Assembly: GCA_050945855.1 (NCBI GenBank)
Contig: JBMNTS010000002.1
Coordinates: 6,480 to 70,479 of the forward strand
Origin: Christensenellales bacterium
GTDB lineage: Bacteria; Bacillota; Clostridia; Christensenellales; DTU072
Length of the DNA stretch: 64,000 bases
Direction: 5' to 3'
Below the pieces are notes generated by a model. That model saw only the letters and a program-made list of their open reading frames with translations, was not told where the DNA came from and ran no database searches. Below are positions 17,272 to 52,644 of this stretch, one piece after another (positions within the stretch are counted from its first letter, which is position 1; every line of letters starts with the position of its first letter). A program made the position numbers and the translations under genes.

Positions 17272-17296
17272 TTTTCTTTCTCTTTTTAGGCAAAAA

Positions 17297-31379: not shown

Positions 31380-31454
31380 GCCCTCATAGTCTAACGGTTA
31401 GGACGCTGGCCTCTCACGCCGGTATTAGGAGTTCGAGTCTCCTTGGGGGTACCA
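31380..31454 (+). tRNA. tRNA-Glu (anticodon CUC), CCA encoded
   Basis: Cloverleaf folded by hand. Acceptor GCCCTCA/TGGGGGT with two G-U pairs, D arm GTCT..AGGAC, anticodon stem CTGGC/GCCGG with loop CTCTCAC (anticodon CTC), T arm AGGAG-TTCGAGT-CTCCT, then ACCA. Confidence 0.9.
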
Positions 31455-31552: not shown

Positions 31553-31584
31553 AAAAGAAGCCCGAATTGCTTCGGGCTTCTTTT
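31553..31584 (-). terminator. intrinsic (bidirectional-looking) terminator after the giant gene
   Basis: AAAA-GAAGCCCGAA-ttgc-TTCGGGCTTC-TTTT. A 10-bp GC-rich stem flanked by A and T tracts, 21 nt after the stop codon at 31605. Confidence 0.75.
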
Positions 31585-31604: not shown

Positions 31605-34600
31605 TTAAATCTCGCCCTCTCCCACCAGTAAGTTAAGTTTGAAGATACTGGAGTTAGTGAGTTTTACGCCTGCCCACGTATAGTTGCCTAAGAACATCTG
31701 ATTGGAAATCATGGTCGGCACAGTCCCCTGGAATACCCAGTTCCTGCTGTCGTTGGCGTACGGGAAATAGCCTGTAACGCCCGGTCTGCCGTCCACAATA
31801 ATGTTGACCGTATTGGCGGTAACGGGATTGTTTCCGGTGATGACTGGATGGTCAAAGTCTAAAGCCTCTCCGGTGATATGCACAATTATGGTGTGTCTTG
31901 CGCCGTCAGCCAGATTGACTCCGCCGATATCTATAGGCTGCTCGTAGGACAGGTAGCCGTATTGGTTAAAGGTGAACCTGAGTTGTCCGTTGCTGTAAAT
32001 AAGTTTGATTGTCCTGTTACGGTCGGTCGCTCCAGGAGGCAGCAGATTGGATACATCGTTGCTTGCTATGATAAATTCCACCTCGCCGTTAGCCTGCATT
32101 GTCAGGTTCTGAATATCTACACGGTAGGTATTGTAGCTGCGCAGGTATACGCCGTTGAAGCCGTCGTTGAGGGAAATCACTTTGGACGCGCCGGTCGCGG
32201 AAATCTGCTTGTCTCTGGGTACGTACTCATAGCCGCCGTCTTTTATCTCCACATATTCGTGCCGCGCGGAATCTACTTTCTTGTCTCCCGCTATAAGCCT
32301 GTAAAGCGTAACTCTGGATTCGTAAAGCTCAAAGGCTACATTGGATATCTGCGGATAAGTATTTACAGGCGAAAGCGTACAAATCTCGTTGATAACGGTG
32401 CGCGGAATCAGGCTGTTGGAACTGCTGCTTACGTTATACATCGTAGTATAGGTATCCAGTCTTATCACGGTCAGTGCTTGCGCCGACGTGAGATAATCCG
32501 TATAAATCATCAGCAGTATTACGTCGTTATCTTCGTCAAAGGTGGCGTCAATCCTTACCTTGCCGGACAGCCAGTCAATATCCGTCCTTATCGCGGAAAC
32601 GAACTTAAACGCGCTGGCGCCGTTGGCCTGCAGGTAAACCCTTGTGGAAGGATTGCCCGAAGCGCTGTCATAGCCTATAGCCAAAGCCAATCCGATAAAT
32701 GACGGGTCGTTGGTGGTGGCAGTATACGCGTTTAATGTGTTGCTGTTGGTCTTTAAGCTGATAATAGCAAAGCTTTCGGTATTGGAAACGCCGTATAAGC
32801 CGCCGCGCGGGTCAAAGGTCCTGTACATCTCGTTATAGCTGGCGCGGTCAAGCTCGAATACCATTGACAGCCTGTTGTATTGCGCGGTAATTCCGCTTGC
32901 AAGCGTAATCGTGGTAGAACCGGTGTCCGTCGTGGCAATCAGTTCGTCGCCGTTGTAAGCGTGACCGAAAGCCTTATTAATGTTTCTCATATCGGGAATG
33001 GTTGTCGCCGTCGCCAGTTTTGCCTCGAAATATGCTTGCGCGGAAACCACTGTAATCCTCGCGGTATATTCCGCCAATACGTCATAATCCGTAAAGTTGT
33101 TGAATATGGTGCAGGTAATATCGTAATATCCCGGCGTGAAGATGTGCTGTACCGCTTGAACGGGCAGACCCGTAATATGGCTGATAGGCAGCAGTACTTC
33201 GGGCAGCGCGACATCGTTTATCTTATAAAGCACGGAGTAAGCGGTGCCGGCCGCGACATTCTTAACCTGGGCAAAGCTGAACAAGGTGTTAAGATTGATA
33301 TTTGCCACGCCTTGGGCATCGGTAACGTATGTCAGCGTATTGTTGGCGTTGGCGACTGACAAGCCCAGCTTGCTCTTGTAACCCTGACGTAATATCCTGT
33401 AATCTTTTACCCAGGCGCTCATATTGGTCACGTCAAATCCGGCTATGGAGTAATCGGTAAATCTTTGAGCGGGTATGTCGATATTATACGTAAAGGTGTC
33501 GTCTATGCTTATCGTCAATCCGCCGTCTCTCTTATTGAGAACGAACATCAAATCGTGCACAAAGCCGTCGGTAAGGAAATCGGTGCCGGAGATATTGATA
33601 TTCGCCTGACCTGTCTCTACCACCCTCAGACCTTCCTGGGTAATCTCTATCGCCAAAGTGTAAGCGCCTTGGGAGTTGAGTATAAGTCTGAAGAGGTTGC
33701 CTGCCACAAGTTTTGAGAATCTGGCGGAGAAGAAAATCTTGTCATAGTTTTCGCTGATAGGCTGATTCATTGCGTCTGTCAATCTGTACTCGTTGCCGCT
33801 TTGAATTTCCGCTCCCATGGTATACGTAGCGTCATTCTGATTCTTCAAGGAATATGAATAATATCCCTGCTCCAGCCTGGAGTATACCCTGATCATTTGG
33901 TCGGTTAAGGAAATATCGGGTATTGCGGCGGGGGCTCCGATTACCGTAAAGTCGCCGGAGAAGATAAAGGGCTCGCTGTAAGTGATGTTGGCAAGTACCT
34001 GATTCCTGTATTCGCCGCTTTGCAAGTATGCGCTGTGGGTAAAGCCTAAATCATTCGCGTTAAGCAGCATTTGCACGCCGTCCTGCCTGTAGCAGCGCAG
34101 CCAAATCAACGCGCCTTCCTCACCGTCGTCAATCAGCAATTCATCCTCTACCACTTCAAAGCCGGTCAGATAGGTATGCACCACGACCTCTCTTTGTATG
34201 CCGTAGAACTCGTAATTATCCAGCGTGTAATTAATTATTGTGGGATAGACATATCTGGTTGTAAACAGCTCGGTAGACCTGACGCTCTTTTCGTTGTCCT
34301 TCCACGTAAGCGAGAAGCTGTCGGAATAGACGTCGATAAATAAGCTTTCAAGGGTGTCGCCGCCGGTAAGACCGTAGGGCAGGGTGCCGTATACAGCTTG
34401 CTCCGCCGGGGTCAACTGAGGATTGACATCAAAGGAGAAATTGCCGGTGAGAACCAGATTTTCGCCTTGCTGCACCAGTTCATGCTTTTCGAAATTTACT
34501 CCGGAAAGTATATGCATCGTGTCGTAGGTGGGAGAAAGAGCGGTCTGCTGATAAGAAGAACCGTTCCAGGTGTAAACCTTTCTCTCATAATCACCCTGGC

Positions 34601-37600
34601 TCACAACCACATATTTCTTGCTTGTTACAGGAGTAAGAGCGGTGCCGTTGTCGGTAAGCGACAGCCAATCGGAAGTGAAAGCAGTGCCCGCCGAACGGGT
34701 AAAGGCCTGAACCGTTTCCGTAGCGCCTACATACAGCCTGCGCTTATTCACAACGTAATCGGTGGGTATATAAGTAACCGTATAATTGGAATAGAAGCCT
34801 TGCCCCACGTTAACGGAAGCGATTACGCCCGCTAAGCCTGTGTAGCTTCCGGCGCCGATCAGCCATTCAAAAGCAGGCTCCACGTAATTGGGGTGTCCGG
34901 GACCTTCGTCCATTACAAAGCCGGTAAAGTCAAAGTCATAATCAGGCTGTTCGCCGTATGTCGCGGTTAATGTAGAACCGCTTTGGGGCACAATCTTAAT
35001 GCTTAACGGCGTTCTGATAATCTCAAGAGCGCATTCGTAACTCTCGGGGAAGTCAAAGTAGTAGTTTTGATTGGGGCCTCCGTTCTCGTGATACAGCATT
35101 ACCGTAAAGACGGAGCCTACATTGCTGCCGCGCAGGGCAGCCCCCGAAATTACTTCATAATCGGGTTCGTACTGCAGGCTTCCTTCGCCGAATTTATAAC
35201 CGGTGAATTCAAAGCTTAAATCTTCTTCGCCGCGCCCGTACATTATTTCAAATCTGTTGTTGGCATTAAACTGCATCTGAATGGGAGCGCGCTTAATTTC
35301 AAAGATCGCCGAAGTGTTGGGGGCGGGCTTGTAGTTGGAATCCGCTCTGAACCTTATTTCAGGCGCGGTAATCGGATACAAGCCTGCGTTGGACTCTCTG
35401 CTGATAGGACAATAAATCTGACTGAGCTCCTCTAACAAGCCGACGTCGGCAACGCTTTCTCCCGATACTATGCCGGAGACATCCACCACCAGTTTGGCGT
35501 AATTTCTGATAAAGGTATATTCTCCGAAGGTTTCGAATATTTCGTTTCCGCCTTCCTGGTTTTTGATAAATACGTTGATTTCTTTATGGTCAATGCGGAA
35601 ATGCCAGGTATGCATATAGCTGAAAGAGTAATTGGGATTCAATTCCACAAGCTGCTGAATATTAAAGTTGTAGCTGCCCACGTTTTCTCCCGATTCTCTG
35701 GTTATATTGCCCTGCAGGGTCTCGCCCTCGACCAAGCTCACCGGTGTTACGCCGTAAGTAATGGCGGGGTCAAGGTCGCCGTAAACCTTGCTGCCTGTAA
35801 TATTGGTAAAGGTAACGGGACGCTGATTGATGGTAAAGGTAGTGTTAAGACTTTGGGTAATCGTATGGTTGCGGTCGGAGCAAATTACCGTAAACGGATA
35901 GGCTCCCGCGTCTTTTCTTGTCTCATCCTGCCATACAACTTCTATGGACAATCTGCCATTGGTTAAATTGGTCTGGAAGTTGCCCTGATAATTGGTAAAG
36001 TTGAAATTATTGGCAAGAATCTGAGCATTGGTACCGTCATAAGCCTTGGACAAGTAATTGTTGTTAAGCCTTAATGTAGCGCTTTGCTTGGTTATTCTGT
36101 ATTTGTAGTCCTGCAAGAGCCTTAAAACATAATTCCTGTTTTCCGATTGAGGCTTAAACGCCACGCTTACATTGAATTCGCCGACGTCCGCCTGTGACCA
36201 GCCTGTGTAATCAATGCCGGCCTCTTCGATTCTCTCAAAAGTGAAGTCTAAATCATTGATGGAAATAGCGGCGATGCCCGCATTCATATAATTAATATTG
36301 GGCGCGTAAGTGTCATAAGTCTTGGTAATTATACCTTCGGTGGACTGCAGGAATATGTCCGCAATCGCCTGTTCGATTATAAAGGTATAATCCTTCATTA
36401 CACCTCCCACCTGCACTTTTGCCAGCGTAAGCACATTGTTGCGCGCAAAGAAGGTTTCTGTCAAAACAGCGCTTATATCATAACCAATTATTTCGTCTTC
36501 AGCGTTAAATCTTACGTTTTTGGGAGGTTGAGTAGAGCCGGAAGGATTAACAACAAAGATGTTGAAGTCAAACTCCATACCGTAATATGTGCCGTTATTA
36601 TATAAGGTATTGCCGTCCGCGTCCTTAATCTCCGCAAGGAACTTGTTAACTCTTGCTTCCTGACCGGTATAAGGCACCCTTATTTCGTTGCTGCCTTCGG
36701 GCGCTTGCTTAAGATAGAGGGTCAGCTCTCTCTTATTAATGGTTACCGTCATTGAAGGCGCGGAAGCGGGAAGCTTGTAATTGGAATTATCCAACCCCAA
36801 TACCGCAATATTATACGTTCCCACTTCAAGCGCGCTGTAAAGATTGATTTCTACCTGAATCTGATCAGGTTCGAATACGTCATCGGGATGCACTATTGCC
36901 GCGAAATAATAAGCGGACTCCTTAAAAGTGAGGTCGGACTCCAGATCCTGATAGGTATTCTCGCCAATCCTTTCCTTGAACTGGATACGCACCTCTTTCT
37001 GCGTTATCGTGAAGAGGTAGCCTTCGGGATTGCTGAATACTATATTATGATTGGTGTCGTTATTTTGAATAGCCGCGTAATAATTGCCCACATTGCGCGA
37101 ACCGGTAGGGAATACTACGCTGACGTTTGCGGAATTGATATTGTAACCGTTGATTAAAACATAATCGCTCGCGGTAATCGATGGAGCCTGACCGTTGTAT
37201 ACTCTGGTCAGTTTTTCCGCGGGAATCTCGATAACGGCGTCTCTCTTTGTAATCGTGAATCTGGCGGAAACAAAGTTCTCTATTATGTAATTGCTGTTGT
37301 AAAGAGAGCCTAACAATATATCGTATTCGCCCACGGGGTCATTTTGCAGTCCGCCGCCTTGAGATGCCCTTCCCAATTGTCCTGACAAGGTGTCCCCTTC
37401 TTTAAGACCGCTGGAGGGATTGCCCGCTATGGGATTTACTCTGTATTGGAAGGAGGCGGGATCCGGAGTGCCGTATATCTTGCTGCCGTCTTCCGGCGTC
37501 TCAAAAATTACTTCTACCTCGATAGGTCTTTGCAATACCGTAAGATATCCCATCTCGTAATGGATTTCATAATTGCTCCAGGAAAGTCCGCTCGCATAAA

Positions 37601-40600
37601 TGGGATAGGTGCCGATAATGGAATTGATATTGGCTGTAGTCTGCATAACTAAGGTGTTGCCCAGCGAAGCGGGAGTATCCGAATACGCAAAAGCGTTGGG
37701 ATTGCGTATGCCTCCGCCTATCGGCGCAGGCTCCGCATAGTATTTTACCGTTAAGGTGGGGTTGGGGTCGCCGTATACTCTCTGCAGATTGTCCGCGACT
37801 ACATAAATATCTTTCTTGGTAATTGTAACCGTATTTGAAATAAAGGAGATGTTGTAATTGGGGTTGTTGGCGTTGGTAAGGTCGCCCTGAGTGATGACGT
37901 ACTCGCCCACATCATTGTTGGCGGGTCTCATAAGACCGCCGTAAAGGGTATCCCCTTCCACTCTGCCGCTCTCCGGCTCCTCGGTGCCGTAAACGTCGTA
38001 AGTAAGCACAATATTGGCTATGCCGTAAACTCTTTCCTGATGATGCGCCTCAATAACTATGTCACGGCGATGAATGGTAAAGATACCTACGTTATAACCC
38101 TGATATACATAAGAGATAGCATAATTGTCGGATTGCAGGCCGCTCAGGATAATGGAATACGCTCCCGCGGGGGTCTTTTGTCCTATCGCGGGCAGGATAG
38201 TCCCCGTGCCCGATTGATATTGGATATTGAGAGTATCCCCGAAAATGCTGCCGTTCTGACCGTACGCGAACGCCGTATCCTCTCTGCCGTCCACAGGATT
38301 GAGGTATCTGATGCTGATTTCCGGATTTTCCGCGCCATAAATCTTTTCCGCGTCCTCGGCGTACACAAATATGGCTTTGGGATAAATTATTATTGTCTTG
38401 CTCTCGTCCCTTAATTCGTTATGTATGGCGTCGCCAGGATAAGTCACCACTACGGTATACTGTCCGACATCGGTGGGCAATTCATTGTGAATCGCTCCCG
38501 TCGCCACGTTGACGTATTGGATTTGAGAGCCGCTCAGCACCGTTGTGGGTTCTGCGGTTTTGTCATATTCTGCATAGCCCATCAATTGATATTCGGGCGC
38601 TGTGGCGGAGCCGTAATAGAAGCTGTATACGTTGGACTGGCTGAACGCCACATGAGCGTACAGTCTGTCGTTCATGGAAATGTTGTACTCCGTAGAACGC
38701 TTTACCGTACCTACGGTGTAGTTGATTACAATGCGCTGCGCCTGATTGGTGCCGGTAAACTCGCGATTGTCAAAAGCGGAAATATCCACATTGAAGGCGG
38801 CGGTGGAAGAGCCTATGACCGCTTCGCTGAGCAGCCTGTGCTCAAAGGTGTTGTTATCGTAATTTACCCTGATTCTGCTTTCGTTGCCGTCCGCGGTAAG
38901 CAGAGTAAACGGCTCGCCCTCTATGTAGTAATACTTAGGCATAGTGATGATTTCAATGCCGGCAAGCAGTTTGGGCAATACGTTGATAACAATGCCTAAC
39001 GTCTTGGATACCCCTTCGTGCGTATAAGTAATGATTATATTCCTGGGGCCTGTGCTGAGGTTGTTCTTATTATAATCGGTATAGCTTTGACGGATGGACA
39101 CTTCCTTTTGCGTGCCGTTGTCATAGTGCGCTATTATGCGCGCGTTGTTGAGGTCTAAATCCATACCCTCTTTTACGTCGGGAATAAAGCTTGCGGGAGC
39201 AAATTCTATGGATACCAGCGTCCTGGGACCTACGTCCAGCATGAACGAAAGCGAATTTTCTCTGTATATGATTCTGGGCTGCTGCTGCGAAGCGTCGCCG
39301 ATATCCAAATCCTCAATCGTGATTTCGTCCAAAATATCCACTAAGAACACATAGTATTCGTCGCCGAACTGCGTAGTCACCAAAATCTCCAATTCGGACG
39401 GGAACACTACCTCTTGTCCCTGGGTAATGTACAGGTGCGGAGTGGTTCCGTCTTTCCAGCTTAGTTGCGTGATTCTGGGCTCGGCAACGGTAATTACGTA
39501 TGAGCAGGTATATTCCCCTAAATATGTGATGGTAATCGTCTGCTCTCCGGGTACGCCTGCCTCAAAGCCGGAAAACTCCAGGTTGGTGTCGTTCCAGTTG
39601 GTTTCACTGAAAGTGTTGTTGTTGAACAGGATGTTGATAAGTATGCCCGAAGTATCCAGTTCATTTTCCGAATTTGCGTCGTACTCCGTCTTGTAAACGG
39701 ATATGCTCTTTATTTCTATGCCGCTGATGGATTTTTCCAGCACTTCTATGGTGGCGGATGTGGTGGCTATCTTGCCCCTCTTGCTTACTCTTACCGTGAA
39801 TGTGCGGAGTCCGGGCGTAAAATCGGTATAATCAAAACCTATTATATTCGTTTCGTAATTAAGCGCCATCTGCTCGGTTTCGCCGTTTTCATAATGCAGG
39901 ATAGCGTAATAGCCCTGCGTGTCTATCTTTAAGCCTTCCAGCACCGTTTCAAATTCCTGATTCAAGGAAACTGACACCAAATCGTTTCTCACGTTGACGT
40001 ATAAATTCACGGAAACGCTGTTGGTATCCATTTCGGAATTGGTATAAGTGAGCTGAAGCGGAATAGGATTGTATTCCCCTTGTACATCGTCAAAATCAAT
40101 ATAATCGAACACCGTGTCAATCCCCTGCCATTCGGAGCCGAAATCGGTGATAAGCACAGGCTCGTTTGCGTCCTCGTATTCGATATTGATCTGCATGCCG
40201 GCAGGGTCAAATGTATCGCCCTTTATGTATGTCATTTTGTCGGGATCGGCTACCACGGATAAGGAAACGGCCTTTCTGATAACCTTTGCGGTAAAATATG
40301 TCTGAATGCTGCCGTACTTGTTTACGTAATTGACGGTAACCTGATGAGTCCCCAATTGATTCTTATCATAACCCGATATATTGGCAGGCTGAAGCGTCGC
40401 TTGCTCCACTCTGCCGCTGTTGTACTCAATAACAAGCCTTATATCCGTCAGATTCAAATCATGATTGAGATAAACCACGCGGGTGGCGGAAGGCGTTATC
40501 TGATAAGAGGAAATGGTGAGCGCGGTAACCTGCACCGTGTATACGGTATCTATAAAGCCGTATTCATCCTGCAGAGAAACGGTAAGGCTTAGCTCTCCCG

Positions 40601-41843
40601 CCAAGTCGGTGTTTGCCAGCGCGCTTTGCCCTCCTTCTATCATTTCTTCGCTCAAAGGTTGCCCTTCCAGCATGCTGCCGTTGTCGTAATATACGGTATA
40701 AGTCCAATCGCTGATATCAATAACGCTGTCCTGATATATAATCCCCGAAGGTCTTATTATCTCAAGCTGGGTGGGCGTCTTTTCCAGCACCGTGATTTCG
40801 ATGTCTGTCGAAAGGTTGTTATAGAAAGTCAAAGTCAGATTCTGTCTGCCCGTAAGAGCGGAATTATAGCCCGTGATAACCACCTTGTTGCCGTCCAGAG
40901 CGATAACTTCTCTGTCGCCGTCCGAATAGCGCAATTCTATGCTTACGCCCTCAAGATTGAGGTCGGTGTTTACTTTTTGACCGGGCAGACTGTCTATGGT
41001 ATTGTTGTTTCTTATTAGCCTGTGACTGGTAATGGAATTTTCCACAACGTTTACGATAAAGGAAGTGGATTTGCCCTGATATGAAAGGGTAACCGTAGTT
41101 TTGCCCCCTACCGCGCCTGCCAGATTGTATGTTACATCCATATCCTCCAGGGCGGTCATATTGACTATTTCATGAGTGCCGTTGTCATAAATCAGCCTTA
41201 ATTTTCCGCCTTCCAGGCTAACCTCGTCGTCCGCGGTGTACAAGTCGTCGGAAACAGGCTGCTCTATCCGCATCTCCATAAGCGCCTTTGCCCTTACATT
41301 GACTTTGTATGAAGCGGTATGTCCCTCGTAAGTCACCCTTACAGTCTGTTCGCCCACCTCGGTTTTGTCGTAGCCCGATATCATATCCGGGGTGATTTCC
41401 TTGATGGCGGGGTCGCCGATGTCGTAGTTGACGTTGATGTAACCGCCGTCAAGAACCAGATCTTCTCCCTCTATGTAGTTCTTTTTAGCGGGTTCGGTAT
41501 TTATGGCAATGCTTATTACCGGAGAATCGTATATGTTAATCGCAAAACTTACTCTTTTCTCTTTGTATGTAATGACCACCGTTTGAGTGCTTATAAGATT
41601 CATATCGTAAGTGCTTAACATTGATTCGTCGATTGGGACGAATATTTCGTTGCCGTTGCTCAATTTGACTCTGAGTTGAGCGCCCTTAAGGTCTAACTCC
41701 TCTCCCCTGCGGTATTCCGTATCAGGAGAGCCCACAATGGTAAGCTCCTCTACAATCGGAATCCCCTCGCTGGAACACGCCGAAAGCGCAAACACGCTAA
41801 GCATCGCGGTTAGGATAATGGCAACAATCAGGCTTTTTTTCAT
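31605..41843 (-). CDS. giant (3412 aa) cell-surface lipoprotein with tandem Ig-like modules, MBG/YGX-like modules and a C-terminal region containing jelly-roll/LamG-like segments
   Basis: A single uninterrupted 10,239-nt ORF. Signal peptide and lipobox MKKSLIVAIILTAMLSVFALSA|C, with a GGAGGA SD upstream. Domain calls are from repeat motifs (see the repeat features). I saw no LPXTG, SLH or choline-binding anchor. Confidence 0.85.
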   Translation of the reverse strand: MKKSLIVAIILTAMLSVFALSACSSEGIPIVEELTIVGSPDTEYRRGEELDLKGAQLRVKLSNGNEIFVPIDESMLSTYDMNLISTQTVVITYKEKRVSFAINIYDSPVISIAINTEPAKKNYIEGEDLVLDGGYINVNYDIGDPAIKEITPDMISGYDKTEVGEQTVRVTYEGHTASYKVNVRAKALMEMRIEQPVSDDLYTADDEVSLEGGKLRLIYDNGTHEIVNMTALEDMDVTYNLAGAVGGKTTVTLSYQGKSTSFIVNVVENSITSHRLIRNNNTIDSLPGQKVNTDLNLEGVSIELRYSDGDREVIALDGNKVVITGYNSALTGRQNLTLTFYNNLSTDIEITVLEKTPTQLEIIRPSGIIYQDSVIDISDWTYTVYYDNGSMLEGQPLSEEMIEGGQSALANTDLAGELSLTVSLQDEYGFIDTVYTVQVTALTISSYQITPSATRVVYLNHDLNLTDIRLVIEYNSGRVEQATLQPANISGYDKNQLGTHQVTVNYVNKYGSIQTYFTAKVIRKAVSLSVVADPDKMTYIKGDTFDPAGMQINIEYEDANEPVLITDFGSEWQGIDTVFDYIDFDDVQGEYNPIPLQLTYTNSEMDTNSVSVNLYVNVRNDLVSVSLNQEFETVLEGLKIDTQGYYAILHYENGETEQMALNYETNIIGFDYTDFTPGLRTFTVRVSKRGKIATTSATIEVLEKSISGIEIKSISVYKTEYDANSENELDTSGILINILFNNNTFSETNWNDTNLEFSGFEAGVPGEQTITITYLGEYTCSYVITVAEPRITQLSWKDGTTPHLYITQGQEVVFPSELEILVTTQFGDEYYVFLVDILDEITIEDLDIGDASQQQPRIIYRENSLSFMLDVGPRTLVSIEFAPASFIPDVKEGMDLDLNNARIIAHYDNGTQKEVSIRQSYTDYNKNNLSTGPRNIIITYTHEGVSKTLGIVINVLPKLLAGIEIITMPKYYYIEGEPFTLLTADGNESRIRVNYDNNTFEHRLLSEAVIGSSTAAFNVDISAFDNREFTGTNQAQRIVINYTVGTVKRSTEYNISMNDRLYAHVAFSQSNVYSFYYGSATAPEYQLMGYAEYDKTAEPTTVLSGSQIQYVNVATGAIHNELPTDVGQYTVVVTYPGDAIHNELRDESKTIIIYPKAIFVYAEDAEKIYGAENPEISIRYLNPVDGREDTAFAYGQNGSIFGDTLNIQYQSGTGTILPAIGQKTPAGAYSIILSGLQSDNYAISYVYQGYNVGIFTIHRRDIVIEAHHQERVYGIANIVLTYDVYGTEEPESGRVEGDTLYGGLMRPANNDVGEYVITQGDLTNANNPNYNISFISNTVTITKKDIYVVADNLQRVYGDPNPTLTVKYYAEPAPIGGGIRNPNAFAYSDTPASLGNTLVMQTTANINSIIGTYPIYASGLSWSNYEIHYEMGYLTVLQRPIEVEVIFETPEDGSKIYGTPDPASFQYRVNPIAGNPSSGLKEGDTLSGQLGRASQGGGLQNDPVGEYDILLGSLYNSNYIIENFVSARFTITKRDAVIEIPAEKLTRVYNGQAPSITASDYVLINGYNINSANVSVVFPTGSRNVGNYYAAIQNNDTNHNIVFSNPEGYLFTITQKEVRIQFKERIGENTYQDLESDLTFKESAYYFAAIVHPDDVFEPDQIQVEINLYSALEVGTYNIAVLGLDNSNYKLPASAPSMTVTINKRELTLYLKQAPEGSNEIRVPYTGQEARVNKFLAEIKDADGNTLYNNGTYYGMEFDFNIFVVNPSGSTQPPKNVRFNAEDEIIGYDISAVLTETFFARNNVLTLAKVQVGGVMKDYTFIIEQAIADIFLQSTEGIITKTYDTYAPNINYMNAGIAAISINDLDFTFERIEEAGIDYTGWSQADVGEFNVSVAFKPQSENRNYVLRLLQDYKYRITKQSATLRLNNNYLSKAYDGTNAQILANNFNFTNYQGNFQTNLTNGRLSIEVVWQDETRKDAGAYPFTVICSDRNHTITQSLNTTFTINQRPVTFTNITGSKVYGDLDPAITYGVTPVSLVEGETLQGNITRESGENVGSYNFNIQQLVELNPNYSFSYMHTWHFRIDHKEINVFIKNQEGGNEIFETFGEYTFIRNYAKLVVDVSGIVSGESVADVGLLEELSQIYCPISRESNAGLYPITAPEIRFRADSNYKPAPNTSAIFEIKRAPIQMQFNANNRFEIMYGRGEEDLSFEFTGYKFGEGSLQYEPDYEVISGAALRGSNVGSVFTVMLYHENGGPNQNYYFDFPESYECALEIIRTPLSIKIVPQSGSTLTATYGEQPDYDFDFTGFVMDEGPGHPNYVEPAFEWLIGAGSYTGLAGVIASVNVGQGFYSNYTVTYIPTDYVVNKRRLYVGATETVQAFTRSAGTAFTSDWLSLTDNGTALTPVTSKKYVVVSQGDYERKVYTWNGSSYQQTALSPTYDTMHILSGVNFEKHELVQQGENLVLTGNFSFDVNPQLTPAEQAVYGTLPYGLTGGDTLESLFIDVYSDSFSLTWKDNEKSVRSTELFTTRYVYPTIINYTLDNYEFYGIQREVVVHTYLTGFEVVEDELLIDDGEEGALIWLRCYRQDGVQMLLNANDLGFTHSAYLQSGEYRNQVLANITYSEPFIFSGDFTVIGAPAAIPDISLTDQMIRVYSRLEQGYYSYSLKNQNDATYTMGAEIQSGNEYRLTDAMNQPISENYDKIFFSARFSKLVAGNLFRLILNSQGAYTLAIEITQEGLRVVETGQANINISGTDFLTDGFVHDLMFVLNKRDGGLTISIDDTFTYNIDIPAQRFTDYSIAGFDVTNMSAWVKDYRILRQGYKSKLGLSVANANNTLTYVTDAQGVANINLNTLFSFAQVKNVAAGTAYSVLYKINDVALPEVLLPISHITGLPVQAVQHIFTPGYYDITCTIFNNFTDYDVLAEYTARITVVSAQAYFEAKLATATTIPDMRNINKAFGHAYNGDELIATTDTGSTTITLASGITAQYNRLSMVFELDRASYNEMYRTFDPRGGLYGVSNTESFAIISLKTNSNTLNAYTATTNDPSFIGLALAIGYDSASGNPSTRVYLQANGASAFKFVSAIRTDIDWLSGKVRIDATFDEDNDVILLMIYTDYLTSAQALTVIRLDTYTTMYNVSSSSNSLIPRTVINEICTLSPVNTYPQISNVAFELYESRVTLYRLIAGDKKVDSARHEYVEIKDGGYEYVPRDKQISATGASKVISLNDGFNGVYLRSYNTYRVDIQNLTMQANGEVEFIIASNDVSNLLPPGATDRNRTIKLIYSNGQLRFTFNQYGYLSYEQPIDIGGVNLADGARHTIIVHITGEALDFDHPVITGNNPVTANTVNIIVDGRPGVTGYFPYANDSRNWVFQGTVPTMISNQMFLGNYTWAGVKLTNSSIFKLNLLVGEGEI
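34740..38381 (-). repeat. about 13 tandem 80-120-aa MBG (YGX-type)-like modules, aa ~1155-2368 of the giant protein
   Basis: Recurring KIYGAENPEI / RVYGDPNPTLTV / KIYGTPDPASF / KVYGDLDPAITY, followed by GDTLxGxLxR, VGxYxI, NYxI and a closing FTITK(K/R)-type strand (FTIHRRDI, VTITKKDI, FTITKRDA, FTITQKEV, VTINKREL, FTINQRPV, FEIKRAPI and others). Confidence 0.5.
38673..41756 (-). repeat. about 12 tandem 80-100-aa Ig-like modules (Big_3-like), aa ~30-1057 of the giant protein
   Basis: The recurring pattern is x(Y)xxGExLDLxGxxLxVxYxDGxxxxV...GYDxxxxGxQTVTVTYxGxxxSFxVxV. Module ends are recognisable at VSFAINIYD, ASYKVNVRA, TSFIVNVVE, DIEITVLE, VYTVQVTA, YFTAKVIR, LYVNVRN, ATIEVLE, SYVITVAE, FMLDVGP, IVINVLP and EYNISMND. 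Confidence 0.55.
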
Positions 41844-42004
41844 ATAAGTCCTCCGTGAAAATCACAGTGCATAGTTTTAACACAAAGTATAAGCAATTAT
41901 ACTTTATATATAGATAAAATTATAACATCTAAAAGGGTAAAAATCAATGGCAAAAAAAATAAATTTTACTTTTATTTATTTTAAGGATTTTCTTAAATAA
42001 ACCC

Positions 42005-45879: not shown

Positions 45880-45908
45880 TTGAAAAAACGATTGTTTTAT
45901 GATATTAT
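45880..45908 (+). promoter_or_regulatory. sigma-A-type promoter for the GPH transporter gene
   Basis: TTGAAA (45880-45885), 17 nt, TATTAT (45903-45908). A GGAGAGG SD then precedes ATG 45940. Confidence 0.45.
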
Positions 45909-45939
45909 AATATCATTAAAAGCAGGAGAGGGCAAGGTT

Positions 45940-47412
45940 ATGAACAATTTTAAAGCAAAGATTTCTTACGCTCTGGGTGATATTTACGGCGGAGCGGCAT
46001 TTCTGGTTTTCAGTTTGCTTTATATGAACTTTTTGGTGCTGGTAGAGGGTTTGCCGGTAGTGGCTGCTTCCACGGTAATTTTTATCGGCAAACTGTGGGA
46101 CGCTGTTACAGACCCCATGATGGGCAATATTTCGGATAAAACGCGCACAAGGTTCGGGCGGCGCAGATTTTATTTTCTGTTTGGCATAATTCCCGTTTTT
46201 CTGTCCTTTGTTATGCTGTTTTATTCCTTCGGTATTGCCGACGTCAACGCGAAAATAGCTTATCATACTTTCGCGTATATGTTTTTCGGCACCGCTTTTA
46301 CCATAGTTATGGTGCCTTACAACGCCATTCTTTCGGAAATGACTTCGGACTACAACGAAAGGACCGCCTTTACCACGATAAGAATGCTTATGTCCGGCGC
46401 CGCGTCGCTGGTTGCCGCTATTGTGCCCAGCATGATTATCAAGAGCATAGGCGGCGAAATCAACGGTCCCGACCAAAAAACCGGGTATCTGGTAATGGCG
46501 ATAGCCATGGCCGTTATTTTCGGTCTGTGCTGGCTGTTTACTTTCCTTGGCACTTGGGAAAGGTCGGATCTGATGGCTCCCGCGGGTATGACCTTAAAGA
46601 AATGGCTGTCCGTTTTCAAAAACAAGTCCTACCGGATTTTTATAGTTATTTTTATCAGCTTTCAGGTGGCGGTGGATCTGATGCTCGCTCTGTTTATCTT
46701 TTACGTTGACATCGTGGTGCTCAAATATCAAAGCTATGAGACCATTATCGGAGTGCTGCTTGTTTGCTCCCTGATCTTTATGGTTTTGCAAGGGGCAATA
46801 GCAAAAAAATGGGGTAAGGCGTCTCCGCTGTTTTTCGGCATGCCTATCTGGATAATTTCTTCCGTTGCCTTTATTTTTGTGGATACCACCACGCCGGTTA
46901 TGGTGCTGTGCGGACTGGCGGCCCTCATTGCCATCGGCTCTTCCGCGGGCAATCTGTCCACCTGGTCCATGCTGACGGATATCTACGACGTGGACGAGAT
47001 AATGACGGGTGAGCGCAGAGAGGGCATATACAGCGGCTTTACCACCTTTTCGCGCAAATTCGCCAGCGGCTTTGCGGTATTGATACTGGGCGTAGGACTA
47101 AAAGCGATGGGGTTTGACCAAAACGAGTACAATCTCTTAAAGAGCAATATGGATAGTTTCGACCCCGCCACATACGCTCAATCCTCTATCGTAAACGGCA
47201 TTAAATGGATGTTTGTCATTATACCCATAGTTTTATTGACTATTACCTTGCTGTTTGCGACAAAATACAAACTCAACAACAAGCGGTTCAATTCGGTGTT
47301 AAAAGGCATTTCCGCTTATAAAGAGGAGGGCAACCTTGCGGGACTTAACAATGAGGAACTGTTGGATATACAGACCGTTACGGGCAAGTTTATAAAAGAT
47401 TTGCGCAAATAG
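45940..47412 (+). CDS. MFS transporter, glycoside-pentoside-hexuronide (GPH):cation symporter family
   Basis: Start moved to ATG 45940 (MNNFKAKISYALGDIYGG...). The DAVTDPMMGNISDKTRTRFGRRR loop motif is typical of MelB/GPH carriers. 12 TM helices. Confidence 0.8.
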   Translation: MNNFKAKISYALGDIYGGAAFLVFSLLYMNFLVLVEGLPVVAASTVIFIGKLWDAVTDPMMGNISDKTRTRFGRRRFYFLFGIIPVFLSFVMLFYSFGIADVNAKIAYHTFAYMFFGTAFTIVMVPYNAILSEMTSDYNERTAFTTIRMLMSGAASLVAAIVPSMIIKSIGGEINGPDQKTGYLVMAIAMAVIFGLCWLFTFLGTWERSDLMAPAGMTLKKWLSVFKNKSYRIFIVIFISFQVAVDLMLALFIFYVDIVVLKYQSYETIIGVLLVCSLIFMVLQGAIAKKWGKASPLFFGMPIWIISSVAFIFVDTTTPVMVLCGLAALIAIGSSAGNLSTWSMLTDIYDVDEIMTGERREGIYSGFTTFSRKFASGFAVLILGVGLKAMGFDQNEYNLLKSNMDSFDPATYAQSSIVNGIKWMFVIIPIVLLTITLLFATKYKLNNKRFNSVLKGISAYKEEGNLAGLNNEELLDIQTVTGKFIKDLRK

Positions 47413-48640: not shown

Positions 48641-49384
48641 ATGAAAAAAACGTATTCCATTTTCATATTGATAATTGTATTAGTTCTGGCGGCGTTATCG
48701 CTTGCGGGTTGTTCTCCCGAGCCTAAAACCATAAAAGAAATATACATAGTCAGCTCCGTAGGTCAGGATGTTCAGATAGGCGATTTCGATATCGCCAATT
48801 ATCGCATCAGATTGATAATGACGGACGGCACGGATAAATACGTTACCGTAAAGCCCAATATGATAGTCACCGACCTTGCCGTTTTTGAGGAGCTTGGCGC
48901 GCATACTCTTACTTTAATTTACAACAACACCACCCTTTTGTATCCGATCAACATCGTGGAGAGAATGTTTGAGGTCACCTTTGAGGTAAACGGCGGAAGC
49001 GCGCTTGCCCCCAGAGCGACGGCTAAGCTTATGGAGCGGCCTTTGACCTCTAAAGAGGGTTATAAGTTTGCGGGCTGGTACGATAACGAAAATTTTGAAG
49101 GCTCTCAAATTCTCTTCCCCTTAAGCGTAACCGAGGACAGGACTTTATACGCCCGCTGGGTAGAAGATTTTGTATCCGTTTATCAGGTAACCTTTGATTA
49201 TAATTACGACGAGGCAATACTGTATACCCCGCAGCTGATTCCGCAGGGAGAAAAAGTGATAGCCCCCACATTTTTGACCAGAGAGGGCTATACGATTTCC
49301 GGCTGGTATCTTGACAATACCTTATGGGATTTTGAGGAAGACACCGTAAGCGGCAACATTACCCTTCTTGCGATGTGGGATTAA
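48641..49384 (+). CDS. lipoprotein with one Ig-like module and two Listeria-Bacteroides (InlB B-repeat type) repeats
   Basis: Signal peptide and lipobox LAALSLAG|C. Two copies of the xVTFxxNGG...REGYxFxGWY...TLYAxW pattern (FEVTFEVNGGS...GYKFAGWYDN...TLYARW and YQVTFDYNYDE...GYTISGWYLDN...TLLAMW). Confidence 0.75.
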   Translation: MKKTYSIFILIIVLVLAALSLAGCSPEPKTIKEIYIVSSVGQDVQIGDFDIANYRIRLIMTDGTDKYVTVKPNMIVTDLAVFEELGAHTLTLIYNNTTLLYPINIVERMFEVTFEVNGGSALAPRATAKLMERPLTSKEGYKFAGWYDNENFEGSQILFPLSVTEDRTLYARWVEDFVSVYQVTFDYNYDEAILYTPQLIPQGEKVIAPTFLTREGYTISGWYLDNTLWDFEEDTVSGNITLLAMWD

Positions 49385-51195
49385 GCATTGTCAAAAAGGC
49401 AATGTATCTGCAGCAAATGACCGTATAATTGCGGGGCCGCCATAAGCTGCCCGAACCACGGCAAGCCGTAATCGGAGGGGCTGCTCATCAATATCTTAAG
49501 TTTTTCCATATCGACAGCGTCTTTGAGGATGCTGTCTTTTTTTAGCGTTTCCTTAAGCATTTCCTTGATAACCGCCTCGTATTTCGGGTTGAAAGTTTTA
49601 GGATATGGGCTCTTTTTACGGTTGATAACCGCTTCCGGCAATTCGCCCGACACAGCTTTCCGGAGCATGCCCTTTTCTCTGTTGCCCAGCAGTAATATCT
49701 CGGGCGGAATATTGTATACATACTGCGCTATATCCGGAGTGCAAAACGGCACTCTGACCTCAAGGTGCGAAAACATGCTCATTGCGTTAGAGCGCTCCAG
49801 CAATGTCGCCATAAACCAGTACAGGTTGAGATACTGCAATCTCCTGAACCGCGCGGTCCTCTCGTCCGCATTATCTGGCAAGGGCGCTTTGGCGGCAGCC
49901 TCAGCAAATCGCTCCTGCACGTATTGGTCAATTTTATATTTCTTCTTAAAATCGTCTTTTAAAATATAAGAGCGGATATTGTCCTGCTTCATCCACGGAA
50001 AAGTGGACAGGCTTTCGTTTTTCATATACCACGGATAACCGCAAAAGATTTCGTCCGCGCATTCTCCCGAAAGGGCTACCTTGTGAGAGCGCGCTATTTC
50101 CTTGCAAAATAACAGTAGAGAGCCGTCCACGTCCGCCATGCCCGGCAAGTCACGCGCAAAGGCCGCCTCAATTACGCTTTGCGCAAGTTTTGCGCCGCTG
50201 TCCGCGATGTAGGATTGATGAATGCTCTTGCAATAATCGGACATAAGCAGAATAAAGGCGGCGTCCGAATCGGGCTGGTATGCCGTGCGCTCAAAATATT
50301 TGTCGTTGCCCTCGTAATCTATGGAAAAGGTGGACAGCCTGTCTCCGCTTTGCTCCAGTTTTTTGGCGGCGACGGCGGCTATAATGCTGCTGTCCAGCCC
50401 GCCGCTCAATAGGGCGCAGCCCTCAGGCGTTACCTGACTTTCTATGGAATCCAGCACCAGCGCTCTTACCTTTTCGACAGTGTCCTCCGCGCTGTCCTTA
50501 TGCTCGCGCGCCTCCAGCCTCCAGTATTCCCTCCGTTTTAATCCGTCCGCACTGAAAATCGCGTATTCTGCCGGGAGCAACTCTCCAATGCCTTTATAGA
50601 TACATTCCCCCGCCGTTCTGCAAGGCGCAAGCCCGAATATCTCCGCGTATCCCACCTCGCTTATTTCCTTATTGATTCCCGCCGCGAAAAGCCCTTTTAT
50701 TTCGCTGGAAAATATAAGGCTGTCCCATTTTCGGGCGTAAAATAAAGCTTTTATCCCCAGATGGTCTCTGGCTAAAATAAATTGCCTGTTTTCTTTGTCA
50801 TAAATAACAAACGCGAAATTCCCGCTTAATTCCTTAACGCATTCCACGCCCCGGGCATAATATAACAACAAAATTGCCTCGGCGTCGGATTCCGCTTGCC
50901 GCAGGCCGGATTTGGCTATTTCAAAATCCAGTTTATCTCTGTTGAATAATATCCCGTCCAATACTATCGCGTACTCTCTGCCGCCTATAGACAGCTTAAC
51001 GGAGCACTCCTGCAAAGCGTCCTCCGCCGTGCTAAGCCCCGCCTGTCCCATCAGCGCGTAATCCTCAATATACGCGCCGGTATAATCCGGCCCCCTGTGC
51101 CTGACCGATTGCAGCATATTGTATACGCAATAAATATTTTCTGTCTTTTTTCCTATTTTTTCCTTTGCGTTTATAATTCCTGTTATAGCGCTCAT
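49381..51195 (-). CDS. asparagine synthetase B-family protein with a degenerate N-terminal glutaminase site
   Basis: 604 aa. The synthetase domain is intact (PP-loop ALLSGGLDSS; LSGECADEIFCGY). The N-terminus reads MSAITG rather than MCGI. The start is well supported by a GGAGGA SD 7 nt upstream. Confidence 0.8.
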   Translation of the reverse strand: MSAITGIINAKEKIGKKTENIYCVYNMLQSVRHRGPDYTGAYIEDYALMGQAGLSTAEDALQECSVKLSIGGREYAIVLDGILFNRDKLDFEIAKSGLRQAESDAEAILLLYYARGVECVKELSGNFAFVIYDKENRQFILARDHLGIKALFYARKWDSLIFSSEIKGLFAAGINKEISEVGYAEIFGLAPCRTAGECIYKGIGELLPAEYAIFSADGLKRREYWRLEAREHKDSAEDTVEKVRALVLDSIESQVTPEGCALLSGGLDSSIIAAVAAKKLEQSGDRLSTFSIDYEGNDKYFERTAYQPDSDAAFILLMSDYCKSIHQSYIADSGAKLAQSVIEAAFARDLPGMADVDGSLLLFCKEIARSHKVALSGECADEIFCGYPWYMKNESLSTFPWMKQDNIRSYILKDDFKKKYKIDQYVQERFAEAAAKAPLPDNADERTARFRRLQYLNLYWFMATLLERSNAMSMFSHLEVRVPFCTPDIAQYVYNIPPEILLLGNREKGMLRKAVSGELPEAVINRKKSPYPKTFNPKYEAVIKEMLKETLKKDSILKDAVDMEKLKILMSSPSDYGLPWFGQLMAAPQLYGHLLQIHCLFDNA

Positions 51196-51235
51196 TTAAT
51201 TTTCCTCCGTAGTTTATTCTATGGCTGCGCAATTC

Positions 51236-51263
51236 ACCACGTGAAAGATAATCTCATAGTATG
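51236..51263 (+). promoter_or_regulatory. possible sigma-K-type sporulation promoter for dpaAB
   Basis: AC (51236-51237), 17 nt, CATAGTATG (51255-51263), compared with the low-information consensus AC-17-CATAnnnTA. About 30 nt upstream of the GAGGT SD and ATG 51298. The B. subtilis spoVF operon is sigma-K dependent. Confidence 0.25.
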
Positions 51264-51297
51264 TAATAAATTAATCAAAAAAATCGAGGTCGAAGCA

Positions 51298-52053
51298 ATG
51301 GCTTACAGGTATATGATTTTAGGAGGAGATAAAAGGAGTTACTACCTTAAAAGTATATTACAAAATGATAATAATATTGTTTATGATTTTATATACAATC
51401 CGAATTTTCATGAGGCGGCAAGCTGCCTTGGCAAGATAGATTACCTGATACTGCCCATACCCTGCACACGGGACGGGGAGTACATAACCAACACCAATCT
51501 CCGCTTTTGCGACATTTTGCCCCTTGTGGGCAACGCGGGAGTCTTTTTGGGTTGCAAGGAAAGGATAAATTTTGATTTTGACGCCTATAAAGTTTACGAT
51601 TTAGGCGAAAGCGAAACCTTTAAGCGCAAGAACGCCATACTCACTGTGGAAGGCGTGCTGGCTCTCACCATAAAAAACACTTTGTTTTCCATTCACGGCT
51701 CCGTGATTCTGGTGGCGGGGTACGGCAGAGTGGGCTCTTACCTTGTCAAGCAATTAAAGAGTCTGGGCGCGAAGGTTTACGTTGTGGAAAGGGACGCATC
51801 CAAAACTTCCAAGCTTAAAGGGGTATACGTCGCAAAAAGCGTGGATGAGCTGCCCGGCGATGTTAATTTTGATTTAATCTACAATACGGTAAATGAAAAT
51901 ATACTGGATAAGTACTCCTACACTACAATATTTGACCTTGCCAACGTGTTATGCGGTTACAATATTGTATCAACAAAATCCCTGCCTGCCATTTATTCCG
52001 CCTATTCTTCCGCCAAAATCGTTGCAGAATGCATATATTCGTTTATTAAATGA
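51298..52053 (+). CDS. dpaA: dipicolinate synthase subunit A
   Basis: Start moved to ATG 51298 (MAYRYMILGGDKRSYYLKSIL), which has a GAGGT SD. Rossmann motif VLVAGYGRVGSYL. Followed by dpaB. Confidence 0.85.
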   Translation: MAYRYMILGGDKRSYYLKSILQNDNNIVYDFIYNPNFHEAASCLGKIDYLILPIPCTRDGEYITNTNLRFCDILPLVGNAGVFLGCKERINFDFDAYKVYDLGESETFKRKNAILTVEGVLALTIKNTLFSIHGSVILVAGYGRVGSYLVKQLKSLGAKVYVVERDASKTSKLKGVYVAKSVDELPGDVNFDLIYNTVNENILDKYSYTTIFDLANVLCGYNIVSTKSLPAIYSAYSSAKIVAECIYSFIK

Positions 52054-52062
52054 GGTAGAATT

Positions 52063-52644
52063 ATGGATGTAAAAAATAAAGTAATCGGCTTTGCCCTTAC
52101 CGGCTCCTTCTGTACGCTTGAGAAAGCCGTGGCGCAAATAAAAAAGCTGACGGACGCGGGCGCGGAAGTAATCCCTATGGCTACGGAAAGCGTGCTGACC
52201 ACGGATACGCGTTTCGGCAAAGCCGCCGATTGGATAGAAAGCATTGAGAGTATCACCAATAAAAAGATATGGAGCAGTATAACTCAGACGGAGCCTATAG
52301 GCCCTCAGTCCCTATTGGATATTCTTATTGTAGCCCCTTGCACCGGCAATACTCTTGCAAAAATCGCTCTGGGAATTACGGACAACGCGGTTATGCTGGC
52401 GATTAAAGCGCAACTGAGAAACAGCAAGCCCGTGCTGATTGCCGTTTCCACAAACGACGGGCTGGCGAACAACGCCAAAAACATCGGCGCTCTGCAGGCG
52501 AAAAGAGATATCTTCTTTGTGCCTTACACGCAGGACGACCCCATAAAAAAGCCCAATTCCCTGGTTGCCGTAATGGACGCGCTGTTGCCTGCCGCAGAAT
52601 GCGCGCTGGAGCATAAGCAGTTGCAGCCTATGCTTTACAAATAA
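52063..52644 (+). CDS. dpaB: dipicolinate synthase subunit B (flavoprotein)
   Basis: 193 aa. IGFALTGSFCT...APCTGNTLAKIALGITDN is the flavoprotein (SpoVFB) signature. Confidence 0.88.
   Translation: MDVKNKVIGFALTGSFCTLEKAVAQIKKLTDAGAEVIPMATESVLTTDTRFGKAADWIESIESITNKKIWSSITQTEPIGPQSLLDILIVAPCTGNTLAKIALGITDNAVMLAIKAQLRNSKPVLIAVSTNDGLANNAKNIGALQAKRDIFFVPYTQDDPIKKPNSLVAVMDALLPAAECALEHKQLQPMLYK

Follow-up and report, generated by a model that had tools for sequence, protein, structure and literature searches.

A predicted lipid-anchored, stalked surface protein of 3412 amino acids with a lectin-like head at a conserved locus of uncultured Christensenellales

Gene and product at the locus

We analysed a stretch of 64,000 nucleotides from an assembly of Christensenellales bacterium (GenBank assembly GCA_050945855.1, contig JBMNTS010000002.1, positions 6,480 to 70,479 of the forward strand); this whole 64-kb stretch is called the window, and positions are counted from its first letter. 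A single intact open reading frame (ORF) on the reverse strand (31605-41843, ATG start, stop codon included in the coordinates) filled 16.0% of the window, as had been stated in an earlier note made from the letters of this DNA alone, and encoded a complete product of 3412 amino acids (aa). The protein is already on record at NCBI under the name 'MAG: MBG domain-containing protein [Christensenellales bacterium]', where MAG stands for metagenome-assembled genome. We refer to it as the giant protein and describe its predicted anchor, stalk and head, the conservation of its gene, and its probable function.

The identical 3412-aa protein was encoded on four contigs, each of a different sample: two metagenomes of the Joint Genome Institute (JGI; 3300049647 and 3300058954) and two runs of the Sequence Read Archive (SRA; SRR31066337 and SRR35641920). 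The gene also had the same neighbours on the four contigs as far as each of them reached. Within the DNA of the gene, neither tandem repeats nor direct repeats longer than 35 nt were found. Collinear full-length orthologs of 3428 aa (61% identity) and 3426 aa (46% identity) were identified.

The gene is preceded by a Shine-Dalgarno sequence, GGAGGA, 5 nt from the ATG (41849-41854, reverse strand, by direct sequence reading). On the same strand, a consensus scan indicated a promoter-like site, TTGATT-17-(TG)TATAAT with an extended -10 element, at 41919-41947 (10 of 12 matches, which is no proof of function). At 32 nt past the stop codon lies a perfect hairpin with A-run and T-run flanks, GAAGCCCGAATTGCTTCGGGCTTC, which resembles a bidirectional intrinsic terminator (31557-31573). 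It is followed by a tRNA-Glu(CTC) gene predicted by ARAGORN (31380-31454, forward strand), convergent with the giant gene, and a second hairpin sits after the tRNA. The tRNA-Glu with strong terminators on one side was thus found as described earlier. Likewise, no terminator-like site was found in the 161-bp spacer between the gene of the upstream S-component of an energy-coupling factor (ECF) transporter and the ORF, though this spacer holds the promoter-like site and the Shine-Dalgarno sequence. Transcription of the giant gene is probably driven by signals of its own.

Signal peptide and anchoring

The product starts with MKKSLIVAIILTAMLSVFALSAC, a putative lipoprotein signal peptide (aa 1-23; 41775-41843, reverse strand) with two lysines in an MKK n-region, a 17-residue hydrophobic core, and the lipobox L-S-A-C ending at Cys23. 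The N-terminus MKKSLIVAIILTAMLSVFALSA followed by C23 passed the PROSITE-type lipobox rule: a charged n-region, an h-region, a lipobox of the pattern [LVI][ASTVI][GAS]-C, and a cysteine within positions 15-35 were all present. The classical lipoprotein signal read by the earlier note was thereby confirmed.

Other anchors were searched for in the whole protein. A Kyte-Doolittle scan showed no membrane-spanning segment besides the signal peptide; one marginal strand, at aa 948-966, was all that otherwise exceeded 1.6. The C-terminus had no hydrophobic stretch, the tail reading ...NLLVGEGEI. A regular-expression scan for LPXTG-type motifs (LP.T[GAS] or NP[QK]T[GN]) was negative, and no SLH, CW_binding or choline-binding, LysM or SH3b-type wall anchor was matched in Pfam at E<=1. 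At that threshold, Pfam matched only MBG_2 and Big_3, plus a sub-threshold GldH_lipo, and an NCBIfam scan of the 3412 aa assigned no family. The lack of an LPXTG, SLH, choline-binding or C-terminal transmembrane (TM) anchor noted on first reading was thus upheld by motif, Pfam and hydropathy scans, and the N-terminal lipid appears to be the sole recognisable anchor of the protein.

A lipobox cysteine ended the signal peptide in all 19 full-length family members, and an LPXTG motif was found in none of the 19. Among 26 other giants rich in Big_3 or MBG modules that were retrieved, one had a clear lipobox and one a doubtful one; the remainder had ordinary signal peptides. Because the lipobox is universal in the family (19/19) and was seen in only 1-2 of the 26 other giants, lipid anchoring appears to be a family-specific, conserved trait. 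The same comparison makes it fair to call attachment by lipid alone unusual for an adhesin of the Gram-positive type, as the earlier note did.

Two further putative lipoproteins are encoded in the window, which suggests that the organism uses the lipid route for surface proteins; the giant gene is therefore not the sole surface-type gene of the window. One (48641-49384, forward strand) is 247 aa long, with the lipobox LSLAG-C and two matches to Flg_new (Listeria-Bacteroides repeat), and its N-terminal part resembles a Big_3-type module on reading. The other (2463-4160, reverse strand; 565 aa) has the lipobox ALFAAG-C and no Pfam match at E<=1e-5, and its gene adjoins that of RNase Y.

Stalk of Big_3 and MBG modules

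Two arrays of small modules follow the signal peptide. Pfam Big_3 (PF07523) matched in five stretches with 120.4 bits (E 3.9e-35; gathering threshold 21.2 bits), and Pfam MBG_2 of the YGX type (PF18676) matched with 176.5 bits (E 1.6e-52; gathering threshold 25 bits). Hidden Markov models (HMMs), each started from a single module (Big_3 or MBG) and iterated over the relatives that had been retrieved, detected 11 Big_3-type modules within aa 38-1057 and nine MBG modules within aa 1160-2078. A twelfth Big_3 module at about aa 800-871 was found by profile-profile comparison with HHalign (85%), so that the Ig-like array comprises 12 modules (aa 38-1057; 38673-41732, reverse strand).

The MBG array covers aa 1058-2365 (34749-38672, reverse strand). 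Profile-profile comparison based on an 18-sequence family alignment resolved 12 MBG modules (aa 1160-2359) in a regular register, starting at aa 1160, 1264, 1348, 1443, 1540, 1637, 1832, 1926, 2012, 2103, 2196 and 2291; the probability was 85-99% for ten of them and 44-66% for two. The same comparison detected no MBG module in two module-sized stretches, aa 1058-1159 and aa 1692-1831, the former of which holds a family-invariant YG (Y1077-G1078). The YG and NY columns of the MBG modules were invariant in the family alignment. The earlier estimates of about 12 Big_3-type and about 13 MBG modules were accordingly fair, the latter in view of 12 detected modules and two undetected stretches of module size.

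Mean identity among paralogous modules of the protein was 26.5% for Big_3 and 29.5% for MBG, and each module shared 41-76% identity with its positional ortholog in the 61% relative. As the modules are closer to their positional orthologs than to their paralogs, their duplications appear to be old, in agreement with the earlier note. Since the paralogs have diverged, the positional orthologs are closer, and the DNA is free of repeats, a repeat collapse or a recent expansion can be excluded. The nearest solved relative of the Big_3 modules was 2l7y, and a sequence search of the PDB with the MBG region gave no match.

Predicted C-terminal head

The last approximately 1040 aa matched no family of Pfam or NCBIfam, and PDB sequence searches with the head yielded chance-level matches only, whether the query was its single sequence or its profile. 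Structure prediction by AlphaFold2 (AF2) with six sequences yielded an unusable model, with a predicted local distance difference test (pLDDT) score of 46.9. With 17 family sequences, mean pLDDT rose to 67.7; values lay at 60-91 from about aa 2555 to the C-terminus, and the last domain reached 75-91.

In this model, the region after the stalk begins with a segment to which no fold was assigned (aa 2373-2554; 34182-34727; all head features are on the reverse strand). Its pLDDT was below 50 in both AF2 models, and it showed no match to the module profiles. An extra Big_3-like Ig module is predicted next (aa 2563-2632; 33948-34157) from HHalign (50%, E 1.6e-4) and strands with pLDDT of 60-85. Three jelly-rolls of the LamG/ConA type are predicted to follow, with support from the AF2 model, Foldseek and HHalign. 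Jelly-roll 1 (aa ~2642-2822; 33378-33920) is separated from jelly-roll 2 (aa ~2957-3187; 32283-32975) by an Ig-like β-sandwich (aa ~2827-2937; 33033-33365; pLDDT 70-86 in AF2), and jelly-roll 3 (aa ~3192-3409; 31617-32270), the best-modelled domain, forms the C-terminal tip with pLDDT of 75-91. Domain borders were taken from the secondary structure of the AF2 model and are approximate.

Foldseek comparison of the head model with the PDB gave best matches with probabilities of 0.96-1.00 and E-values of 1e-10 to 3e-5. The top folds were LG1-3 of laminin-111 and laminin-511, the LNS1-6 arrays of neurexin-1α, LG4-5 of laminin α2, the LG domains of Gas6, tandem-repeat galectins, and the lectin-winged sialidase of Vibrio cholerae. 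Comparison of sub-alignments by HHalign supported mutual homology of the jelly-rolls: 96% for 1 versus 3, 74% for 1 versus 2, and 33% for 2 versus 3. In one of the 17 family members, Pfam Laminin_G_2 gave a weak match (1.3e-4). Jelly-roll 1 holds the family-conserved motif LFDGFTHxI...DKR, of which G388 and H391 are invariant in alignment A3; the conserved pattern DGxxH...DKR...ID is presumably a LamG-type strand pair. From these models we propose a C-terminal region in which three LamG/ConA-like jelly-rolls, paralogous to one another, are interspersed with Ig-like domains. The check for LamG domains that the earlier note had recommended thus turned out positive at the level of the fold, by Foldseek on the AF2 model, and negative by Pfam profiles.

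Catalytic jelly-rolls like those of glycoside hydrolase family 16 (GH16) were considered and rejected: the best folds were non-catalytic LG, LNS and galectin domains, and the conserved motif is not an ExDxxE site.

Compared with the 46% ortholog, the head was 33-45% identical and the stalk 48-51%. This faster divergence of the head than of the stalk fits a ligand-facing tip.

Family and distribution

With the alignment of the C-terminal region as its profile, an exhaustive HMMER search through 1.84 billion representative proteins returned 26 proteins at E<=1e-3. About 16 of the 26 were full-length giants of 3400-4000 aa, in which the head match extended to a few residues short of the C-terminus, and the others were fragments or shorter products. 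The named members were all from MAGs, with no name of a cultured isolate among them; their labels were Christensenellales, Christensenellaceae, Clostridiales, Clostridia, Bacillota and Candidatus Stercoripulliclostridium. The head thus appears, as far as sequence searches reach, to be family-specific and confined to MAGs of uncultured Clostridia/Christensenellales.

When the C-terminal 1040 aa were the only query, a word-indexed homolog search gave just two short matches, both spurious, and failed to recover the parent protein or the 61% and 46% orthologs, which were found by the whole-protein query and by the exhaustive HMMER search. Negative results of word-indexed searches with β-rich or low-complexity queries should therefore be taken with caution. 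A scan of genome contigs with the whole 3412-aa protein gave no match, and the sole match of a contig scan based on UvrC was the genome already known for the 61% ortholog. The literature on the MBG domain, on Christensenella adhesins and on the samples yielded nothing specific.

Conservation of the locus

The window is of housekeeping character throughout, encoding RNase Y, RecA, CinA, FtsK, DnaE, WhiA, MurB, HprK, UvrC, MetH, MTHFR, Rnf and DpaAB. Directly upstream of the giant gene, in the sense of transcription, lie genes for Iso_dh, a metallo-β-lactamase (MBL)-fold protein, a radical S-adenosylmethionine (SAM) protein and the ECF S-component; downstream, the convergent tRNA-Glu(CTC) is followed by MatE and UvrC. 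No sortase, secretion or glycosylation partner was found among the annotated neighbours in the window, as had been noted before.

The 61% ortholog (3428 aa) is encoded on contig CAYSNP010000013.1 of 'uncultured Christensenellaceae bacterium'. Downstream gene order, including tRNA-Glu(CTC), was kept at the loci of both the 61% and the 46% ortholog, with the tRNA in the same position (10395-10469 in L005 and 18424-18498 in L007). Upstream order was kept at the 46% ortholog (L007), the only one in which it could be checked, as the contig of the 61% ortholog ends 48 nt before the gene. The tRNA-Glu(CTC) therewith looks like a stable neighbour and not an integration hot spot. Flanking proteins were 63-76% identical to those of the 61% relative and 55-74% to those of the 46% relative, suggesting that the giant protein evolves faster than its neighbours, though only moderately so.

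Three distant members of 3718, 3826 and 3804 aa shared 26-28% identity with the giant protein. Two of the contigs reach further downstream, and in both of them the gene immediately precedes (MatE-)UvrC-HAD; the third contig ends just past the gene. Their upstream neighbours are unlike those of the window: an FGGY kinase, two aldolases, an MFS_2 transporter (in two of the three) and, directly upstream of the giant gene, a protein of 311-374 aa without a Pfam match (5536-6660 in L009, 5848-6783 in L010 and 5762-6808 in L011). The three copies of the latter have no signal peptide and are 24-26% identical to one another. This protein was considered as a partner of the giant protein and rejected, as tblastn found no homolog of it in the window. 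Approximately 6 kb upstream of the giant gene, distant relatives encode another large Big_3 protein, truncated by the edge of the locus and therefore of at least 1413 and at least 1521 aa (1-1044 in L009 and 1-1310 in L011).

The composition of the gene was native: its GC content was 47.6% compared with 47.1±2.6, GC at third codon positions (GC3) was 57.6% compared with 55.9±3.6, and the correlation of relative synonymous codon usage (RSCU) was r = 0.905, inside the range of long housekeeping genes (0.78-0.92). Neither mobile-element or mobility genes in the window nor direct repeats at the gene borders were found. Because synteny is kept over the five related loci examined, down to 26-28% identity, and the gene is native in GC, GC3 and codon usage, the locus appears to be an ancient, vertically inherited, single-locus feature of the clade and not an accessory island.

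Other genes in the window

Adjacent DpaA_N-containing and Flavoprotein-family ORFs (51097-52644, forward strand) resemble dipicolinate synthase A and B, which hints that this Christensenellales lineage may form endospores. Three ORFs of 616, 344 and 324 aa (15463-17313, reverse; 18025-19059, reverse; 19235-20209, forward) had no Pfam match at E<=1e-5; they sit between a gene for a class II aminoacyl-tRNA synthetase (14087-15466) and dnaE. Hydrophobic stretches at the start of, or within, the 344- and 324-aa products make them possible membrane proteins.

Discussion

Here, we propose, with moderate confidence, that the 3412-aa protein is a lipid-anchored, stalked adhesin or ligand-capturing surface fibril approximately 100 nm long. 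It would be exported by the Sec pathway and then probably lipid-modified by Lgt and Lsp at Cys23, and the diacylglycerol would hold it on the outside of the cytoplasmic membrane. Some 26 small β-domains, 12 Big_3 Ig-like modules and then 12-14 MBG β-grasp modules, would form a long stalk. Small domains of this kind measure about 3-4 nm each, which would give a stalk of approximately 100 nm, enough to cross the wall and carry the C-terminal head beyond it. There, the head would bind a glycan or protein ligand; glycans or proteins are the ligands of the same LamG/ConA fold in laminin LG, neurexin LNS and galectin domains and in the lectin domains of sialidases.

Several points weigh against this proposal. 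The Pfam profiles Laminin_G_1, 2 and 3 did not match the 3412-aa protein at E<=1, and the head model is of moderate confidence and leaves out aa 2373-2554. The geometry of the stalk is assumed, because sequence searches gave no solved relative of the MBG modules. Lipidation of the protein, its passage across the wall, its binding of a ligand and the kind of ligand are steps that we infer. Furthermore, adhesins usually turn over fast, and a fixed position beside housekeeping genes with deep conservation is atypical for them, so that a structural role is possible.

Such a role, in which the protein would be a core structure of the cell envelope (a surface coat, a spacer, or a cohesion fibril for aggregates) and not an adhesin for external ligands, is unlikely in our judgement, yet it is the likeliest of the alternatives. 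It would account for a position beside uvrC that is kept among members just 26-28% identical, for the single conserved locus with overall length and architecture conserved over about 16 clusters, and for the native composition; lower-ranked Foldseek matches to the S-layer proteins 7ptp and 6hhu (probability 0.57-0.72) point the same way. As context, cultured Christensenella minuta forms flocs (PMC7002349). No member of the family was found under the name Christensenella minuta. On the other hand, Pfam detected no SLH, other wall-binding or self-assembly domain, and the S-layer matches are weak and are explained by generic Ig arrays. The best folds were instead ligand-binding LG, LNS and galectin domains, and the head evolves faster than the stalk.

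It also seems rather doubtful that the protein serves nutrient capture, with the jelly-rolls acting as carbohydrate-binding modules (CBMs) that hold polysaccharide for uptake or for degradation by other enzymes. ConA-like folds do occur as lectin or CBM wings in glycosidases, and the Foldseek matches included the V. cholerae sialidase 1w0o, the arabinanase 5hp6 of glycoside hydrolase family 43 (GH43) and the xanthanase 6fhj. Sugar-related genes (MFS_2 sugar transporter, FGGY kinase and aldolases) flank the gene in distant relatives, and the window has an MFS_2 gene of its own at 45880-47412. However, Pfam indicated no catalytic domain in the protein, no glycoside hydrolase is encoded within approximately 15 kb, and the upstream neighbours change between close and distant relatives, leaving no conserved operon partner.

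The earlier note had taken the gene for an accessory-like locus. A strain-variable adhesin locus of that kind, possibly acquired horizontally beside the tRNA gene, would suit the adjoining tRNA, the frequently accessory nature of giant repetitive surface proteins, and the identities of 61% and 46%, which lag behind the 63-76% and 55-74% of the neighbours. The gene nevertheless occupies the same place beside the same tRNA-Glu(CTC) in both of these relatives, members of 26-28% identity still adjoin (matE-)uvrC, GC, GC3 and RSCU are native and like those of housekeeping genes, and the borders are free of mobile-element genes and direct repeats. We consider this account very improbable and already largely refuted. 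Finally, long repetitive genes can be chimeric in metagenome assemblies, but an assembly artefact, against which the earlier note had also argued, or a chance read-through of a pseudogene is effectively refuted here, since the product recurs on four independent contigs from four samples, no DNA repeat over 35 nt is available to collapse, full-length orthologs (3428 and 3426 aa) are collinear with it, and chance cannot preserve an open frame of 10.2 kb.

A bolder form of the adhesin proposal, which we regard as speculative and improbable, is that the family forms a lineage-defining surface organelle, passed on vertically, in uncultured Christensenellales: a lipid-anchored fibril of approximately 100 nm, its lectin-like head serving cell-cell cohesion or attachment to one particular partner, such as a methanogen living in syntrophy or the mucus of the host. 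If true, this would explain why a gene of 10-12 kb has been kept at one site despite drift to about 26% identity.

Christensenellales are widespread in the gut and in digesters, and the surface biology of their uncultured lineages is little known. In the family described here, one such lineage has a concrete candidate for the means by which it contacts its surroundings; with a conserved anchor, a family-specific head and a fixed locus, the family is a good starting point for studying the surface of an uncultured gut lineage. The protein is not new in kind, since adhesins with multi-domain stalks and adhesins that are lipoproteins are both familiar. Established biology is not contradicted. What is new is the conserved putative lipid anchor in place of the sortase, SLH or choline-based anchors usual in Firmicutes, and a predicted head of approximately 800 aa outside all domain databases. 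The deeply conserved single locus could serve as a phylogenetic and structural marker of the clade, and a recombinant head (aa ~2640-3412) would be a defined target for ligand screening.

Comparison with known systems

The giant stalked adhesins of Gram-positive bacteria include SasG/Aap, Ebh and SraP of staphylococci and Mub of Lactobacillus. Like these, the giant protein has many small tandem β-domains that would hold a binding region off the cell; in SraP, this region consists of a legume-lectin-like module and a β-grasp module. In contrast to them, it has neither a C-terminal LPXTG motif nor a C-terminal TM segment as in Ebh, and its repeats are highly diverged, whereas theirs are near-identical. 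The polarity is also reversed: these adhesins usually combine an N-terminal head with a C-terminal anchor, and the giant protein would combine an N-terminal lipid with a C-terminal head. It is therefore an analogue of these adhesins and does not belong to their group.

Other Big_3/MBG_2 giants of Clostridia and Bacteroidota (for example, P0009, P0019 and P0029) have tandem modules of the same repeat families and are uncharacterised. They differ in lacking the triple-jelly-roll head, which is limited to 26 clusters of the 1.84 billion, and in having mostly type I signal peptides, some with a C-terminal domain of the type IX secretion system (T9SS), SLH or LPXTG.

The closest solved folds of the head are the laminin LG and neurexin LNS arrays (5mc9, 7cec, 3r05, 3poy and 5ik7), which are likewise tandem LamG jelly-rolls for ligand binding. 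These are eukaryotic proteins of the extracellular matrix (ECM) or the synapse with 6-12% sequence identity to the head, and the likeness holds at the level of fold or superfamily only.

In functional terms, the nearest analogues are lipoprotein adhesins with Ig repeats such as LigA and LigB of Leptospira, which carry an N-terminal lipobox and Big_2 domains. The giant protein resembles them in its lipobox anchor, in approximately 12-13 tandem Ig-like modules and, for LigB, in a distinct C-terminal region. The Lig proteins differ in that their modules are of the Big_2 type, without an MBG array or a LamG head, and in that they have approximately 1200-1900 aa and belong to a spirochaete outer membrane. 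They are also associated with virulence in pathogens, whereas the giant gene is deeply syntenic in a clade of commensal type. No sequence relationship between the giant protein and the Lig family was detected, and Pfam gave no Big_2 match. Lig proteins have been shown experimentally to be adhesins (PMC11350617). The giant protein is an analogue of this family, not a member of it.

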